Source: Candidatus Woesearchaeota archaeon (lineage in GTDB: Archaea; Nanobdellota; Nanobdellia; Pacearchaeales; GW2011-AR1). From it: a stretch of DNA of 64,000 bases. The position numbers and the translations under genes were made by a program. Shown piece by piece: positions 4,653 to 54,677 of this stretch (positions within the stretch are counted from its first letter, which is position 1; each line of letters begins with the position of its first letter). The stretch spans positions 86,602 through 150,601 of the forward strand of contig CAYLOQ010000001.1 of the NCBI GenBank assembly GCA_964385425.1. Direction: 5' to 3'. A model generated the notes under the pieces. The model was not told the DNA's origin and made no database searches. It saw only the letters and a program-made list of their open reading frames with translations.

Positions 4653-5468
4653 TCACTTCCTATTACTGCTCTGCACCTCATTTCTAACTATCTGTCTAAC
4701 GTCTTTTCTTGAAAGCTTTTTCTTTATAGATTCTAAATTCAAAAGCCTAAGAGCTATTCCAGAACCAAAAATCAATAAACCAACAATAAAAACAATCCAA
4801 AATACGTTTCCAGATTTGTTAAAGAAAAATGAGACAAATTCTAGAGAAGATTGCCCTGCTATAATAGAAGAGAGACCTCCTAACTTTAAAAGAGGCAGGG
4901 ATGAAAGCGCTAATAAACCCCCAAAAATTATGGGAAAATTCATTTTTTGCTCTGTTAAGAAGGGGATTAATATGATTAAGACTATAGATACGAGGATGGA
5001 GAAATAAAATTTCTCTTTCCAGTAATCTTTTGCTTTTTCAGAAACCAAAAATAAAGGCAAAGATTCTTTTCCAAAACAATCCCAAAAGCCACAGTCATAT
5101 TCTTTGTAATATGTCTGTTCTATTATAGAATCAATACCTTGCTCAACAAAAGTTTCTAGGGGTTCATTCACCAGATCACAAGAAACTGTAAAATTATATC
5201 TCCCTTCACTAAAAACATACGCTGTATTATTTTGGCAGTAATCTTGCATAATTTCTCTGGCTTCTTCTAAATCCTCTGTTAAATTAAAATCACCCACTAT
5301 GGAACTTGTTTGGTCGTCTACAAATTCCTGTACAATTGGCACTAAACCAGATTTAACATTATCATACTGTAGAGATGTAGATAAAACCAAAAAAACATTT
5401 CCCAATAGAAGAGACAAGAATAGTAAGATGCCAACAATAACCAACAAACCTCCTCTAAAAAAACTCAT
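4653..5468 (-). CDS. Hypothetical integral membrane protein
   Basis: N-terminal TM helix and several C-terminal hydrophobic helices; 271 aa, good codon-like composition. Confidence 0.45.
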   Translation of the reverse strand: MSFFRGGLLVIVGILLFLSLLLGNVFLVLSTSLQYDNVKSGLVPIVQEFVDDQTSSIVGDFNLTEDLEEAREIMQDYCQNNTAYVFSEGRYNFTVSCDLVNEPLETFVEQGIDSIIEQTYYKEYDCGFWDCFGKESLPLFLVSEKAKDYWKEKFYFSILVSIVLIILIPFLTEQKMNFPIIFGGLLALSSLPLLKLGGLSSIIAGQSSLEFVSFFFNKSGNVFWIVFIVGLLIFGSGIALRLLNLESIKKKLSRKDVRQIVRNEVQSSNRK

Positions 5469-19782: not shown

Positions 19783-20109
19783 ATGGAAATAGAAGAAATA
19801 AACAAGTTCATAAATGAAGAAATAAAAAGATTGGAAGAATATCATTCTGAAAAAGATAAAGATGAATTAACAATGGCTATGGGATTTAAGGTCGTTGAAG
19901 AAATTGGAGAATTATTTGAAGAAATGTTAAAAAAGAAGGGCTATCAAAGAAAGGACAAACTAGAAAAGCAAAGTGAAGAGGAAATAAAAAAGGAATTTGC
20001 CGATGTAATATTCACGGTTTTAATCTTGGCAAAAAGATTTGATATAGATATAGAAGACGCTATAAAAATAAAAATGAGTGAAATAAAAAAGAGAAAATAC
20101 ACAAAATAA
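19783..20109 (+). CDS. MazG-like nucleotide pyrophosphohydrolase
   Basis: All-alpha 108-aa protein with the EEIGELFEE metal-binding EExxE motif typical of MazG/NTP-PPase domains. It is wedged between pheS and pheT. Confidence 0.55.
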   Translation: MEIEEINKFINEEIKRLEEYHSEKDKDELTMAMGFKVVEEIGELFEEMLKKKGYQRKDKLEKQSEEEIKKEFADVIFTVLILAKRFDIDIEDAIKIKMSEIKKRKYTK

Positions 20110-20112
20110 AAA

Positions 20113-21759
20113 ATGGCCATAATAAACCTCAACAAAAAACTCTTTGAAAGGGAACTTGGAACCTTGGACTCCAAGATGAAGAACAGAATTGCTATGTTTG
20201 GGACTCCTATTGAAAGGATTACCAGAGACGAGATCCAGATAGAAATATTCCCGAACAGACCAGACCTGTCTTCATACCAAGGATTCAAAAGATCCTTCCT
20301 TGCTTTCTTAGGAAAGAAAACAGGGTTAAAGGAATACAGAATAAATAGTCCTGAAAAAAATTACCAGGTGTATATAGATTCTTCTGTGAGGGATGTTCGT
20401 CCTTATACTGCTTGTGCAATAATAAAGAATCTAAGATTGAATGACGAAAAAATAAAAGAGATAATTGAAATCCAGGAGAAACTGCACATCACTATCGGAA
20501 GAAAAAGAAAAAAAGTTGCAATTGGTATTTATCCCTTAGAAAAAATAAAGCTTCCGATAACCTTCAAGGCTTTAGAGCCAGACAAGATAAAGTTCATCCC
20601 CTTAGAAATGGGTAGAGAGCTTTCCGGACTTGAAATTCTTCAGAGACATCCTGCAGGTAGGAATTATGCCCATCTTTTAGCTGGAAAAGCTAAATTCCCA
20701 ATTTTCATAGATGCGAATAAACAGATATTAAGCATGCCCCCTATAATCAATTCTCAAGCAACAGGAAGAATAACAGAAAAAACCAGGGATGTTTTTGTAG
20801 AGTGCTCTGGATCTGATCTAAAAACTTTAAAACAATGTCTAAATATAATCGTTACGAGCTTAGCGGAAATGGGTGGAGATATTTATCAAATGAAACTAAA
20901 TTACGGAAAGACCCCGGATCTTACACCAAAAAAAGCGAGAATTTCCTTAGAAAATACGAACAAGCTCCTTGGATTGGAACTTAATGAAAAACAACTCAAA
21001 CAACTTATAGAGAAAATGGGCTATAATTATAAAGAGGGAACTGTTCAGGTCCCTGCTTGGAGAACAGATATTTTACACGAGGTCGACCTTATAGAAGACG
21101 TTGCAATAGCCTATGGTTATGATAATTTTATTCCAGAAATTCCAGATATATCCACAATCGGTGAAGAAAATCCGATAGAAGGGATAAAGAGAAAAATATC
21201 AGAAATTTTTTCTGGATTAGAAGTGCTGGAAGTTTCTAATTATCACCTAACAAATAAGAGAAACCAACTGATAAAAATGAGTGTTTTAGAAAAACAAGAG
21301 AAAAATCTTATAGAACTAGAAGAATCAAAAACAGATTTTACAATTTTAAGAAAAAACCTCACCCACCTTTTATTAAAAATTTTTTCAGAAAATGTAGATG
21401 CAGAGTACACACAAAAAATATTTGAAGTTGGAAAGGTTTTCAGATTAGAAGATTCCGGAAAAATAAAAGAGGTTGAAATGTTTGCCATGGCTCTCTCTCC
21501 AGGAAATTTCACAGAAATAAAACAAATATTAGAATATTTCTCAAGGATGACAGGCATACCCTTAAAATTGAAAGAGGGTGAAGAAACACCTTTACATTTT
21601 ATCAAAGGCAGAGTTGCTCAGGTATTTTTCAAAGGAGAGAAGATAGGGTTTCTTGGAGAAATCCATCCAAAAATTTTAAAAAGCTGGAAGATAAAAATGC
21701 CTGTAGCATTAATGGAAATTGAATTAGAAGAAATTTTTAAAGAATTGGAAAAAGATTAG
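20113..21759 (+). CDS. pheT: Phenylalanyl-tRNA synthetase beta subunit (archaeal)
   Basis: 548 aa with a B3/4 editing-like domain and a C-terminal class-II-like fold; it is operonic with pheS. Confidence 0.85.
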   Translation: MAIINLNKKLFERELGTLDSKMKNRIAMFGTPIERITRDEIQIEIFPNRPDLSSYQGFKRSFLAFLGKKTGLKEYRINSPEKNYQVYIDSSVRDVRPYTACAIIKNLRLNDEKIKEIIEIQEKLHITIGRKRKKVAIGIYPLEKIKLPITFKALEPDKIKFIPLEMGRELSGLEILQRHPAGRNYAHLLAGKAKFPIFIDANKQILSMPPIINSQATGRITEKTRDVFVECSGSDLKTLKQCLNIIVTSLAEMGGDIYQMKLNYGKTPDLTPKKARISLENTNKLLGLELNEKQLKQLIEKMGYNYKEGTVQVPAWRTDILHEVDLIEDVAIAYGYDNFIPEIPDISTIGEENPIEGIKRKISEIFSGLEVLEVSNYHLTNKRNQLIKMSVLEKQEKNLIELEESKTDFTILRKNLTHLLLKIFSENVDAEYTQKIFEVGKVFRLEDSGKIKEVEMFAMALSPGNFTEIKQILEYFSRMTGIPLKLKEGEETPLHFIKGRVAQVFFKGEKIGFLGEIHPKILKSWKIKMPVALMEIELEEIFKELEKD

Positions 21760-21780
21760 TTTTTTATTCCTAGAGAAAGA

Positions 21781-23196
21781 ATGGAAGATGTTTACGCCAA
21801 AATTAATTCAATAGAAAATTTAACATTGGCTTGGCAAAATGCAAAGAAAGGGAAGACTAAAAAAAGATATGTAAAAAGATTCCAGAAAAATCTAAAAAGT
21901 AATTTATTATCTCTACAAAAAGAACTTAAAAATCATACCTACAAAACAAGACCTCAAAAGAAATTCATATTGAGAGATCCTAAAACAAGAAAAATATTAA
22001 AATCCGTTTTTAGAGACAGAGTTATTCATCATGCGTTATGTAATATTATCACTCCTGTTTTTGAGGGGGGATTTATCTATGATTCACACGCCAATCAAAT
22101 AGGAAAGGGGACGCTGAAGGCGTTAGAAAGATTTGACAAATTTAAAAGAAAAGTTTCTAAAAATAACTCTAGAAATTGCTATGTTTTAAAGGCAGATATA
22201 AAACACTATTTTGAAGAGATAGATCATAAAATCTTGATAGATATCATAAAAAATAAGATTAAAGATGAGAGAGTTATATGGCTCGCCTATAAAATCTTAA
22301 AGAGTAGCAGAGAGAGAAACGAGCAATCCATTAAAGATAAAGGCATGCCTTTAGGAAATTTAACATCGCAATTTTTTGCTAACGTTTACCTTAATGAATT
22401 AGACAAATTTGTTAAACACAAGTTAAGAGCAAAATATTATATAAGATATGTTGATGATTTTGTAATTCTGCATAGATCTAAGGAACAGCTTGAAAAGTGG
22501 AAGAATAAAATAGATATCTTTCTAAAAGAAAAATTGGATTTAAAATTACATCCAAATAAATCTCAGATTTTAAAATTAGAAAAAGGGATTAAATTCTTAG
22601 GCTTTAGAATTTTCAATTATCATAAGCTTTTAAGAAAGAGCAATATGAAACATTTTGAAAGAAAATTAAATCATATGAAAATAATGCTTGAGGAAGATTT
22701 ATTAAATAGAGAAGAAATTGTAGAGAAATTAGAAGGTTGGCTAGCTTATGCTGTCAAGGGTAATACTCATAAATATAGAAAATATATAGTTCAGAATTTT
22801 AATAGACTTTTTCCTATAGATAAAACAATCCCAATAAAAAATAAGAAGAAACATTTTAACTTTTTGAAAAAGGTTGATGAAAGTACTTTGGAATTTTCAG
22901 TTCAAAAAACTCTTTTTATGTTTTGCAACGGAATGAAAATCAAAGACCTTGCTGAGAAAAGAGGGATAAAAGAAGGGACAGTGTGGAAGCATTTAATAAA
23001 TTTGATAGAGCACAAACAAATTTTAGTATCTCAAGTTTTGCCTAATAAAAAGATTAGACTAATTGCAAATAAGATTTATAATAAAAAAGATGGGCTGAAG
23101 GTGATTAAAAGAAGATTGAAAAGCCATAATATTAATTATGATGAAATTGCTTGTGTTTTGGCAAGTATAAAATCAAAAAATAAAAAAGTGTCCTAG
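21781..23196 (+). CDS. DGR-type reverse transcriptase
   Basis: RT motifs 1-7 are present (DRVIHHAL; SHANQIGKGT; LKADIKHYFEEIDH; YIRYVDDFVIL; LGFRI). Motif 4 reads LGNLTSQFFANVYLNELD, i.e. the DGR-specific [ILV]GxxxSQ rather than the group II intron QGxxxSP. There is a ~150-aa C-terminal extension with a possible HTH (IKDLAEKRGIKEGTVWKHL). Confidence 0.8.
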   Translation: MEDVYAKINSIENLTLAWQNAKKGKTKKRYVKRFQKNLKSNLLSLQKELKNHTYKTRPQKKFILRDPKTRKILKSVFRDRVIHHALCNIITPVFEGGFIYDSHANQIGKGTLKALERFDKFKRKVSKNNSRNCYVLKADIKHYFEEIDHKILIDIIKNKIKDERVIWLAYKILKSSRERNEQSIKDKGMPLGNLTSQFFANVYLNELDKFVKHKLRAKYYIRYVDDFVILHRSKEQLEKWKNKIDIFLKEKLDLKLHPNKSQILKLEKGIKFLGFRIFNYHKLLRKSNMKHFERKLNHMKIMLEEDLLNREEIVEKLEGWLAYAVKGNTHKYRKYIVQNFNRLFPIDKTIPIKNKKKHFNFLKKVDESTLEFSVQKTLFMFCNGMKIKDLAEKRGIKEGTVWKHLINLIEHKQILVSQVLPNKKIRLIANKIYNKKDGLKVIKRRLKSHNINYDEIACVLASIKSKNKKVS

Positions 23197-23215
23197 TAAG
23201 CAAGTCCAAGTTATT

Positions 23216-23300
23216 AAAGGCGAAACGACCATTGTCGTTGCTAAGATTAGTCCTCGCATTCGACCTAGCCCCGCTGCCGAGCCTGTTGACGTACCACGCC
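23216..23300 (-). repeat. DGR template repeat (TR); sense strand is the minus strand
   Basis: Its 85 bp are identical to 23705-23789 except at 9 positions. All 9 carry T in this copy and C in the other on the + strand, i.e. A vs G on the minus strand. The minus-strand sense reads AWYVNRLGSGARSNARTNLSNDNGRFA, with the AAC/AAT/AGC codons typical of TRs. Confidence 0.75.
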
Positions 23301-23467
23301 GCCCAAGTTAGCCTATTTACTTCTTGTTTTCACCACCACTTCACACATTAGGTGTCGTGATTGTATTTTATAAGAGCAAGCTCCCATCGTAAATAAACGT
23401 ATAGCCTAGCTTACTTCGTAAAAACGGTTGCTAGGACAAAATTATATGATAAAAACGCTATAAAAAT

Positions 23468-24400
23468 CTATTGACTTGTTAAATCATCAATCGCTTTTCT
23501 AACCTCAGACTCATTAGCAGAACCAATATAATCTCCAATTACAGAATAAATTTGATCAGTAGTTAATAGTCTTTTTCTTAATTGGTCTCTTTCATCTAAA
23601 GCACTTCCAATTTGATCAATTTGTCCAGATTGTAACGTTCCTTCTAAACTTTGAAGTTGAACTCTTGCTTTATCGATGTCAACCTTAGCGTCTCCGACGC
23701 CATAAAAGGCGAAACGACCATCGCCGCCGCTAAGATTAGCCCTCGCACTCGACCCAGCCCCGCCGCCGAGCCTGCTGACGTACCACGCCTTCAAGACTCC
23801 TTTATCGCTAACATCAGGCAAATCTTGTCCCATCATTGTAACATCTTTATCATTAATATATTCTCTTCCTAATTCAAATGTCTTGCCAATAATTTCTGCA
23901 ACTTCATCTCCCGACCTTGCGAATTTAGAATCAACATGATCTGGATGTCCTAATTTTGTTAAAAGTAATTTGTGCTTCATTGCTTGACTTTCTGTTAAAT
24001 CTTTATTAAGAATTAATCCTTTTCTTTGAAGAGTATAAACTCCGTTTCCTTCTAATTTTTCCCATCTGCCGTCAACATCCAAGTTTACTCCGTAATTCAC
24101 TAGCTCTTCATCAGGATTGATTAAGCCTAAACCAAATCTAGCAACCTCTGTCAATTCTCTACTTCCAGTCTCATAAGGTAAAATAACTTTTACAGTTTCT
24201 CCTTTTGTTGCTGATAATGTTGAAGTATCCCAATATTGATCCCTTATTTCAGGATTTTCAATTCCATATTTTCTTATGTCAGCTTCTGAAAGAATAACAC
24301 CTTCGCCTTTTTCATATCTTGCTAAAAGCACTGGTGAGGTATCTACATTTCTACCATAACAAGGTTCTATTGTCCTTCCTTCTAATTGGATGTTTTCCAT
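23468..24400 (-). CDS. DGR target (variable) protein
   Basis: 310 aa with no signal peptide. The VR lies at aa ~205-231 (KAWYVSRLGGGAGSSARANLSGGDGRFAFYGVGD) and is followed by an ~80-aa helical C-terminal tail. Confidence 0.7.
   Translation of the reverse strand: MENIQLEGRTIEPCYGRNVDTSPVLLARYEKGEGVILSEADIRKYGIENPEIRDQYWDTSTLSATKGETVKVILPYETGSRELTEVARFGLGLINPDEELVNYGVNLDVDGRWEKLEGNGVYTLQRKGLILNKDLTESQAMKHKLLLTKLGHPDHVDSKFARSGDEVAEIIGKTFELGREYINDKDVTMMGQDLPDVSDKGVLKAWYVSRLGGGAGSSARANLSGGDGRFAFYGVGDAKVDIDKARVQLQSLEGTLQSGQIDQIGSALDERDQLRKRLLTTDQIYSVIGDYIGSANESEVRKAIDDLTSQ
23687..23701 (-). promoter_or_regulatory. GC hairpin immediately 3' of the VR (5-6 bp stem GCGTC/GACGC, loop GGA on the sense strand)
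   Basis: A perfect inverted repeat, g-GCGTC-GGA-GACGC-t, 4 nt downstream (sense) of the VR homology end. The TR has no counterpart. Confidence 0.5.
23705..23789 (-). repeat. DGR variable repeat (VR) inside the target gene
   Basis: It matches the TR at 76 of 85 positions. It encodes AWYVSRLGGGAGSSARANLSGGDGRFA in frame in ORF 23468-24400. Confidence 0.75.
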
Positions 24401-24482
24401 AATTTTTTATAGAATTGTAGTTTATAAATCTTTCTATGGTGTTACCACTTGGTAATTAATAACGAGAATAGTTAGAAAAACC

Positions 24483-24968
24483 CTAACCGAAGTAACCTTT
24501 ATTGTTTGCTTCTGATTTGTTATCCCAATTTTGATTTATTTTATCCAAAATAACCAAAAAGTCTCTCTTTATTTCCTTCCATAGATCGTAAGAATACCTT
24601 ACAAATTCAGCTTCTTTTTCTTCAGAAAATTCTGTGTCAAGCCTGATCAAGGTAATTTCATTTTTTGTAAGTTTTTTATAGATGTCTGATGCCTTTTTTC
24701 TCTCTTCTGTTCCAAGGGTCTTAATAATAGAAAAAACAAACATAGGAGCATTTACGGGATTAAGAAGAGTTTCTATAAATCTCATATATCCCCCCAATTT
24801 ATCTGCCATGAACTTCCTTATCTCCCTTATCAAGATATCTGTCTCAACCTCTGCCGCTTTTTCTATCTGAAAATCTTCGTTAAGTTCCCTAAAATCAGGA
24901 AGGTCGTATTTCCTTTTGATTACTTCATAATTTTTCTTTAATTTTTCCAGTTTAGATTTTTCTTCCAT
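24483..24968 (-). CDS. Hypothetical helical protein upstream of the DGR target, a candidate DGR accessory factor
   Basis: 161 aa, predicted all-alpha and charged, co-oriented with the target gene. No Avd signature could be verified. Confidence 0.35.
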   Translation of the reverse strand: MEEKSKLEKLKKNYEVIKRKYDLPDFRELNEDFQIEKAAEVETDILIREIRKFMADKLGGYMRFIETLLNPVNAPMFVFSIIKTLGTEERKKASDIYKKLTKNEITLIRLDTEFSEEKEAEFVRYSYDLWKEIKRDFLVILDKINQNWDNKSEANNKGYFG

Positions 24969-30707: not shown

Positions 30708-30812
30708 GCCCCTATAGTTCAGAGGCCAAGAATGCGGCCCTCTCAAATGGCAACTTGTTGACGTTTGTCGTAGAGCACGGCCGTGACCTGAGTTCGAATC
30801 TCAGTGGGGGCG
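30708..30812 (+). tRNA. tRNA-Glu (anticodon CUC) with a 32-nt intron at the canonical 37/38 site (intron 30746-30777)
   Basis: Acceptor GCCCCTA/TGGGGGC, D-arm GTTC-AGAGGCCAA-GAAT, anticodon stem CGGCC...GGCCG, and T-arm CTGAG-TTCGAAT-CTCAG. Removing 30746-30777 leaves the anticodon loop CUCUCAC. Confidence 0.75.
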
Positions 30813-54563: not shown

Positions 54564-54677
54564 GGCTCCGTAGCTCAGCTTGGTCAGAGCACCAGACTCT
54601 TAGCAGAACCGAGGTTCCGCACCTCCTATTAATTGAGAGATATCTGGGTGTCGAGGGTTCAAATCCCTCCGGGGCCA
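54564..54677 (+). tRNA. tRNA-Lys (anticodon CUU) with a 39-nt intron at 37/38 (intron 54603-54641)
   Basis: Acceptor GGCTCCG/CGGGGCC, D-arm GCTC-AGCTTGGTCA-GAGC, anticodon stem CCAGA...TCTGG, and T-arm GAGGG-TTCAAAT-CCCTC. The spliced loop is CUCUUAA. A TATA-like tttttaaag lies ~28 bp upstream. Confidence 0.75.

Follow-up and report, generated by a model that had tools for sequence, protein, structure and literature searches.

Does a VR in which every difference from its TR is a change from adenine to guanine reveal a new diversification chemistry, or is it an extreme case of a familiar one? The question arose from an archaeal locus in which nine differences between a template repeat (TR) and a variable repeat (VR) had been read as A→G only, an original prediction that offered three explanations: a strongly biased misincorporation, strong selection for Gly and Ser codons, or a non-canonical mechanism. 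The window (the whole stretch of DNA that was analysed, 64,000 nt) belongs to a 505-kb scaffold from an ENA metagenome assembly, and the element is flanked there by genes for archaeal-type PheRS alpha and beta subunits and by tRNA genes. A scaffold with these flanks places the element in the chromosome of a DPANN archaeon. Relatives of the element were found in metagenome-assembled genomes (MAGs) of Woesearchaeota, Pacearchaeota and Nanoarchaeota. Because the host is archaeal, a scan for sigma-70 promoters and terminators was left aside. The features on which the analysis rests are as follows.

21781..23196, + strand: reverse transcriptase (RT) gene, 471 aa, DGR-type, with a C-terminal HTH_40 domain (from the ORF, Pfam and motifs).
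23468..24400, − strand: target (variable protein) gene, 310 aa (from the ORF).
23210..23300, − strand: TR, of which 23213-23300 is certain and 23210-23212, an AAC codon, is ambiguous (from the direct repeat, in register, and the family alignment).
23699..23789, − strand: VR within the target gene, residues 205-235, AWYVSRLGGGAGSSARANLSGGDGRFAFYGV.
23687..23701, − strand: hairpin GGCGTC-GGA-GACGCT, immediately 3′ of the VR (inverted repeat).
23303..23435, − strand: RT-16 RNA motif (Rfam RF03019), immediately 5′ of the TR on the target-sense strand (cmscan).
23175..23466, − strand: predicted DGR RNA transcription unit (from the locus alignment, RNAalifold and pair counts).

Comparison of the window with sister loci reduced the cassette to the target gene, the RNA and the RT only. 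Its layout is inverted: the + strand carries the RT, and the minus strand carries the target, the VR and the TR in its adenine-bearing sense. All 14 related loci with an RT match share this arrangement.

The two copies form a direct repeat of 88 nt (23213-23300 and 23702-23789, offset 489 nt). Alignment of 23216-23300 with 23705-23789 reproduced the nine originally reported + strand mismatches with T in the TR and C in the VR (23233, 23235, 23238, 23239, 23251, 23259, 23266, 23275 and 23286), which are A→G changes on the coding strand because the downstream copy sits in the minus-strand 310-aa ORF. The accompanying counts were also reproduced: within TR 23216-23300, 9 of the 18 template adenines were changed and 0 of the 67 non-adenine positions differed. 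The chance that all nine mismatches would fall on the 18 T positions among 85 is about 1e-7 (hypergeometric), and the adenine specificity is therefore real. The further statement that no adenine had changed to C or T is correct within 23216-23300 and incorrect for the whole repeat. Homology past 23216 reaches at least 23213, so that the repeat is at least 3 nt longer, and at 23215 (VR 23704) the + strand has T in the TR and A in the VR, an A→T change on the coding strand; the statement was true only because the TR had been started 1 nt too late. In the VRs of 15 related elements the template adenine of 23215 appears as G (11), T (3) or A (1), with unchanged non-adenine bases around it, and this variation identifies 23215 as a genuine mutagenised site.

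Two more A→G differences, at 23211 and 23212 (VR 23700-1), distinguish AAC in the TR from GGC in the VR. The codon concerned, 23210-23212, overlaps the 5′ arm of the conserved post-VR hairpin and reads AGC in 14 of 15 relatives; it may or may not belong to the transferred region. On the minus strand the TR contains 20 adenines in 23213-23300 and 22 if this AAC codon is counted, and the VR departs from it by nine A→G changes, one A→T change and two possible A→G changes, that is, by 9 G and 1 T, or by 11 G and 1 T with the ambiguous codon. Surveys of DGRs have used cut-offs of at least 7 A substitutions with at least 10 TR adenines, or of 10 or more A mismatches with no more than 2 non-A mismatches per 100 bp (PMC3521204, PMC4372165). 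The window repeat has 10-12 adenine substitutions and 20-22 TR adenines, with 0 non-adenine mismatches in 88-91 nt.

The probability of about (1/3)^9 that had been attached to nine G's presumes a uniform spectrum, an assumption unsupported by the family data and by published DGR data. The target family served to retrieve 54 related loci, to which exact protein look-ups added three, and 16 distinct in-register TR/VR pairs, the window's included, were pooled. In the 88-nt register, TR adenines were represented in the VRs by A 190, G 125, T 56 and C 4 times; in the 91-nt register the counts were A 206, G 141, T 56 and C 4. Substitutions at template adenines were thus 68-70% G, 28-30% T and 2% C, and only 7 mismatches were seen at about 1,040 non-adenine sites. 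The outcome varied with the following base (64 G, 11 T and 1 C at A before C; 47 G, 29 T and 0 C at A before A). Biased misincorporation, as originally suggested, is therefore upheld as a family-wide and already published property, with a G:T:C ratio of 125:56:4 or 141:56:4, and is not upheld as an exclusive A→G enzyme.

Under this spectrum the window VR is no outlier of a new kind. With the window left out, the proportion of G among substitutions was 0.66-0.69, giving probabilities of 0.025-0.035 for 9 of 9 G, 0.10-0.13 for at least 9 of 10 and 0.05-0.07 for at least 11 of 12. The window VR stands towards the G-rich end of the family, with p from about 0.03 to 0.13 according to where the TR boundary is set, and about one VR as G-rich as this is expected among 16. 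Another such VR does exist: that of a sister element (L013/L041, target 80% identical) has G at 14 of 14 changed adenines. The TR of this sister element recurs, identical base for base, in two loci from other samples (L057 and L058), whose VRs carry 9 G and 3 T, and 8 G and 4 T. The presence of mixed VRs on one TR shows that the all-G VR of the sister element is one draw from a mixed distribution, and three different VRs on a single TR are what ongoing diversification of that element would leave behind. The original prediction had held that all four bases at the adenine-templated positions in population data would make the all-G pattern a single snapshot; the sister element does show bases other than G at such positions. 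For the window element, a degenerate TR/VR pattern (N at each + strand T) found no second copy in metagenome_contigs or genome_contigs, exact-protein look-ups for both the RT and the target led back to the source scaffold alone (ZHAO22-1_SAMN11268109 scaffold_2), and the 90% cluster of the target protein has a single member, so that the element is represented by one contig. There may be a lineage-specific shift to still more G in the window's element.

The RT gene encodes a protein with matches to Pfam RVT_1 (E 4.5e-24) and, at its C terminus, HTH_40 (E 1.9e-15). It has the DGR signature [I/V/L]GxxxSQ in the form LGNLTSQ (residues 191-197; 22351-22371) and an intact catalytic YVDD (residues 223-226; 22447-22458). 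NCBIfam models gave only sub-threshold generic RT matches for this protein and none for the target. A search for an Avd-like or HRDC-type accessory gene found no Avd-like ORF kept between the window and the sister loci. One candidate for such a gene, a 161-aa ORF (24483-24968) upstream of the target, was rejected: it has no family match and no conserved position beside the sister cassettes. Avd is common in DGRs and is not universal, and its absence therefore leaves DGR membership standing.

The strand of the template RNA could be read from the 167 nt between the target stop codon and the TR, which are conserved above the level of the neighbouring genes. This interval holds a match to RT-16 (RF03019) that spans the entire model (1-158 of 158), scores 73.2 bits against a gathering score of 50 (E 1e-11) and occurs on the minus strand only. 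Two helices enclose the TR, a closing helix in which TGTCCTAG (23431-23438) pairs with CTAGGACA (23189-23196) and a second in which AAGTAAG (23410-23416) pairs with CTTGCTT (23198-23204), and both show compensatory changes in an alignment of 13 loci. Over 42 pairs, comprising these two helices and the internal RT-16 helices, 99.1% of alignment cells were paired and 12 pairs were changed on both sides; 0 of 500 shuffles reached so high a value, and slid controls were 29-56% paired. Many of the covarying pairs are G-U and would be A-C on the other strand. The minus-strand RT-16 match and the covarying helices together place the template RNA on the minus strand, and the mutagenised base is therefore adenine, as in canonical DGRs. 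An TTTTTATA box at 23459-23466, after the target stop codon, and an oligo-T run at 23175-23187, after the closing helix, are a putative archaeal promoter and terminator. RT-16, hitherto an orphan motif in Rfam, is thereby assigned to a DGR template RNA, and the closing helices around the TR define a concrete RNA construct for reconstituting an archaeal DGR.

Two further observations concern the ends of this RNA. The RT gene, on the opposite strand, shares its last codons and its stop codon with the oligo-T run and the closing helix (3′ arm), so that the template RNA would converge on the RT mRNA and overlap it. The CCTAGC of the 5′ arm could instead pair locally with GCTAGG (23405-23410), as it does in the Rfam model.

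The target protein adopts a C-type-lectin fold of AvpA-like type and ends in a helical tail of ~75 aa. [quoted passage not shown] The AvpA likeness emerged by fold comparison only, a PDB sequence-profile search with the target family having given no meaningful match, and the motifs of the AvpA subclass (CLec fold; GxxVVVYAH, HPxxxPFxG and RFxGV) are recognisable in the window target as GxxVKVILPY, GHPDxVDxKFA and GRFAF, the last encoded at the 3′ end of the VR. The VR ends in a GC-rich, IMH-like segment, GGTCGTTTCGCC, followed by GGCGTC-GGA-GACGCT, an arrangement whose function as a cis-acting element is predicted from sequence. In 12 relatives the stem of the post-VR hairpin is conserved as AGCGTC-GGA-GACGCT, and the hairpin of one relative (L033, about 387-405) contains a compensatory double change, AACGTC/GACGTT. 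The window hairpin has G/T as its outermost pair. A second hairpin, ACGCC-GAA-GGCGT, follows after about 8 nt in most relatives and is missing from the window, as is a protein segment of 7 codons.

Many AvpA-like relatives (L004/L059, L011, L012, L019, L021, L032, L044, L045 and others) carry a VR-like segment with no TR or RT within 3-4 kb. They may be fossils, or else orphan targets whose diversification occurs in trans, as described in Nanoarchaeota (PMC4372165); in L004/L059, non-adenine positions are also changed. A further locus, L007/L043, was first taken as a TR/VR pair and then left out of the pooled set, since its second copy has a VR-type 3′ flank and non-adenine mismatches, and no RT lies nearby; that copy is probably a second VR or a paralogue. 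The two VR-like copies of this locus (4702-4789 and 5208-5295) are about 506 nt apart, both with the VR-type 3′ flank GATAGCGTCGGAGAC, and differ at adenine and non-adenine positions; the locus has no RT match.

We consider the locus to be a canonical and probably active archaeal AvpA-type DGR in inverted layout, whose all-G run is the G-rich tail of an ordinary, documented bias (probability about 0.85). An RNA of about 260 nt would be made from the minus strand, containing the RT-16 scaffold, the TR and the two closing helices and finishing in an oligo-U end. The RT would copy the TR into cDNA faithfully except opposite adenines, where the enzyme of this clade would insert mostly C (A→G, ~68-70%), sometimes A (A→T, ~28-30%) and very rarely G (A→C, ~2%). 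The cDNA would then replace the VR of the lectin-fold target gene, with the target end presumably marked by two features, the GC-rich segment that encodes GRFAF and, just past the VR on its 3′ side, the hairpin. The window VR would be one cDNA drawn from the clade distribution. Transcription, priming and homing, as well as current activity, are predicted for the window element from these features. This reading removes the apparent anomaly, in that an all-A→G VR is no sign of a new diversification chemistry, and its significance beyond annotation is small.

Selection on the protein is the likeliest of the alternatives. Lineage-specific selection for Gly/Ser/Asp-rich binding-site loops could have left only A→G outcomes where the enzyme alone would yield more T, and the VR does read GGGAGSS..SGGDG. 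As an internal control we used TR AGG (Arg) codons, in which A→C gives CGG, still Arg. The 64 TR AGG codons appeared in VRs as AGG 39, GGG 17, TGG 7 and CGG 1 times, and the probability of at most one C among 25 substitutions is 5e-4 under equal thirds. The rarity of this synonymous codon shows that the shortage of C is mutational and not due to amino-acid selection, for the one codon type that the control covers; the pooled spectrum, drawn from fixed or assembled VRs, separates selection from enzyme bias incompletely. The ratio of G to non-G was mildly heterogeneous among VRs, with a spread beyond binomial sampling (chi-square p = 0.02), possibly reflecting VR-specific selection or differing conditions. 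The window TR itself has GGC AGC GGG in place of GAC AAC AGG, and AGC in place of GAC, changes that would hard-wire small residues. Set against these points, 9 of 10 G is expected in ~10-13% of VRs under the family spectrum without any selection, the sister element reached 14 of 14 G on a different TR, other VRs of which contain T, and the only T of the window VR yields Tyr (TAT), indicating that bulky residues are tolerated. We therefore regard selection as an unlikely explanation of the all-G pattern, while selection for Gly/Ser or other small residues in the window's lineage may add to the G excess.

The remaining alternatives fare worse against the same data. An RT with an exclusive C-opposite-A spectrum, making this a true A→G-only DGR unlike its relatives, would account for 9 of 9 G in 23216-23300 and for 11 of 12 in the widest register, but at this small number of sites an exclusive spectrum is indistinguishable from one with 69% G; the A→T change at 23215 speaks against it, and RTs that are 57-78% identical and of the same architecture give ~28-30% T, so that we hold it to be very improbable. 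A non-canonical route has the attraction of producing transitions only, whether by A-to-I deamination of the TR RNA followed by faithful copying or by G-U wobble during templating from the + strand TR, with G inserted opposite U. In its favour, the TR is read in sense on the strand opposite the RT and begins 14-17 nt past the RT stop codon (23196), so that the RT mRNA probably includes the + strand TR in its 3′ UTR. Deamination, however, cannot yield A→T, which makes up ~28-30% of substitutions across the family and occurs once in the window. Templating from the + strand conflicts with the RT-16 covariance model, which fits the minus strand only, and with the G-U pairs of the TR-enclosing helices, which would become A-C. 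The polarity marks are also canonical, with the GC-rich segment and hairpin at the coding-strand 3′ end of the VR, and inverted DGRs have been described before (PMC3521204). The non-canonical mechanism of the original prediction thus finds no support, given A→T in the window and its relatives and the full set of canonical DGR features at the locus, and we give it hardly any credence. That the repeat is an ordinary duplication, diverging by transition-biased point mutation with no retroelement activity, would fit nine differences that are all transitions. However, they are one transition, in one direction, on one strand, all at 18 of 85 positions (P ~1e-7), non-adenine sites are without differences, and an intact DGR-type RT adjoins the repeat. 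The pattern also recurs in 15 related loci, with differing VRs on identical TRs, and these family data effectively refute simple duplication.

The canonical reading aligns the element with known systems. Among the closest are the AvpA-type DGRs of Nanoarchaeota and other DPANN archaea (Paul et al. 2015, PMC4372165; Handa et al. 2016, PMC5006420; 5IOO), with which it shares a DPANN host, recognisable target motifs and the occurrence of orphan targets without an RT. The window target is only 13% identical to AvpA in sequence and continues beyond the VR with an additional C-terminal helical tail (~75 aa); the cassette differs in its RT with a fused HTH_40 and in conserving no Avd-like gene. The locus is a further archaeal AvpA-type DGR, a type already known. 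With the prototype DGR of Bordetella phage BPP-1 (bRT-Avd) it has in common the adenine-specific TR-to-VR transfer, the [I/V/L]GxxxSQ motif of the RT, a C-type-lectin-fold target with the VR in the ligand-binding face, a hairpin just 3′ of the VR and structured RNA flanking the TR. Unlike in BPP-1, the window RT occupies the other strand from the target, the VR and the TR, the cassette lacks a gene for Avd, and the structured RNA (RT-16) precedes the TR, which has only ~25 nt of the RNA on its 3′ side. The layout resembles that of the 'inverted' DGRs forming group 4 in the survey of 155 DGRs by Schillinger et al. 2012 (PMC3521204), which likewise have the RT ORF opposite the TR, VR and target ORF and T-specific mismatches on the RT strand; the likeness is one of layout, as those elements are bacterial with repeats of 130-139 nt, whereas the window element is archaeal with a repeat of ~90 nt. 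For RT-16 (RF03019; Weinberg et al. 2017, PMC5737381), the window has a full-length match above the gathering score that adjoins an RT gene. Weinberg et al. only speculated on a DGR role for RT motifs other than RT-10 (PMC5737381); in the window, RT-16 lies right against the TR, and covarying helices connect it with what follows the TR on the 3′ side.

Predominance of A→G is itself already reported, in surveys and for BPP-1 in vivo. With randomised contexts in E. coli, C misincorporation by BPP-1 bRT predominates (59%), and G is disfavoured except where A is followed by C (PMC12875486); opposite template A, bRT-Avd in vitro incorporates A at 22%, C at 18% and G at 12% (PMC7826257). Where the window family departs from published DGRs is in the near absence of A→C, which stays at ~2% even at A before C, a context in which bRT shows 27% G misincorporation (PMC12875486). 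The family thereby provides a clade-level archaeal DGR spectrum (G ~69%, T ~29%, C ~2%), accompanied by a selection control, that can be compared with the Bordetella context rules.

The window TR has itself changed. Compared with 15 related TRs it carries, in minus-strand sense, four A→G changes (23277, 23274, 23272 and 23241) and one G→A change (23242) at otherwise invariant positions, as a result of which it reads GGC AGC GGG where all relatives have GAC AAC AGG, and AGC for GAC elsewhere. The changes are enriched at adenines (4 of 21 invariant A versus 1 of 40 invariant non-A; Fisher p = 0.044). Possible causes of this adenine loss include homing of mutagenised cDNA into the TR, VR-to-TR conversion and selection that hard-wires Gly/Ser. 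We tentatively suggest, at somewhat less than even odds, that at template adenines the clade's RT intrinsically yields three letters (A, G and T; A→C stays at ~2% even where C follows, the context in which the Bordetella enzyme is prone to it) and that the window TR has been eroded by the same A→G process at the four adenines that are invariant in relatives. If the outcome is indeed three-lettered, His, Pro, Thr, Ala, Leu and Arg would be unreachable from AAY codons. The loss of adenines from the window TR bears on the decay or hard-wiring of DGRs.

The surroundings of the cassette differ among close relatives. In the window (19783-24968) it has pheT on one side and the unrelated 161-aa ORF on the other, and in L057/L058 its neighbours are genes for deoxyhypusine synthase and Orn/Arg decarboxylase; these differing gene neighbourhoods suggest that the target-RNA-RT cassette moves as a unit. 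Elsewhere in the window, two Rfam tRNA matches that are absent from the ARAGORN output (30708-30812, + strand, 105 nt; 54564-54677, + strand, 114 nt) have lengths suggesting intron-containing archaeal tRNA genes.
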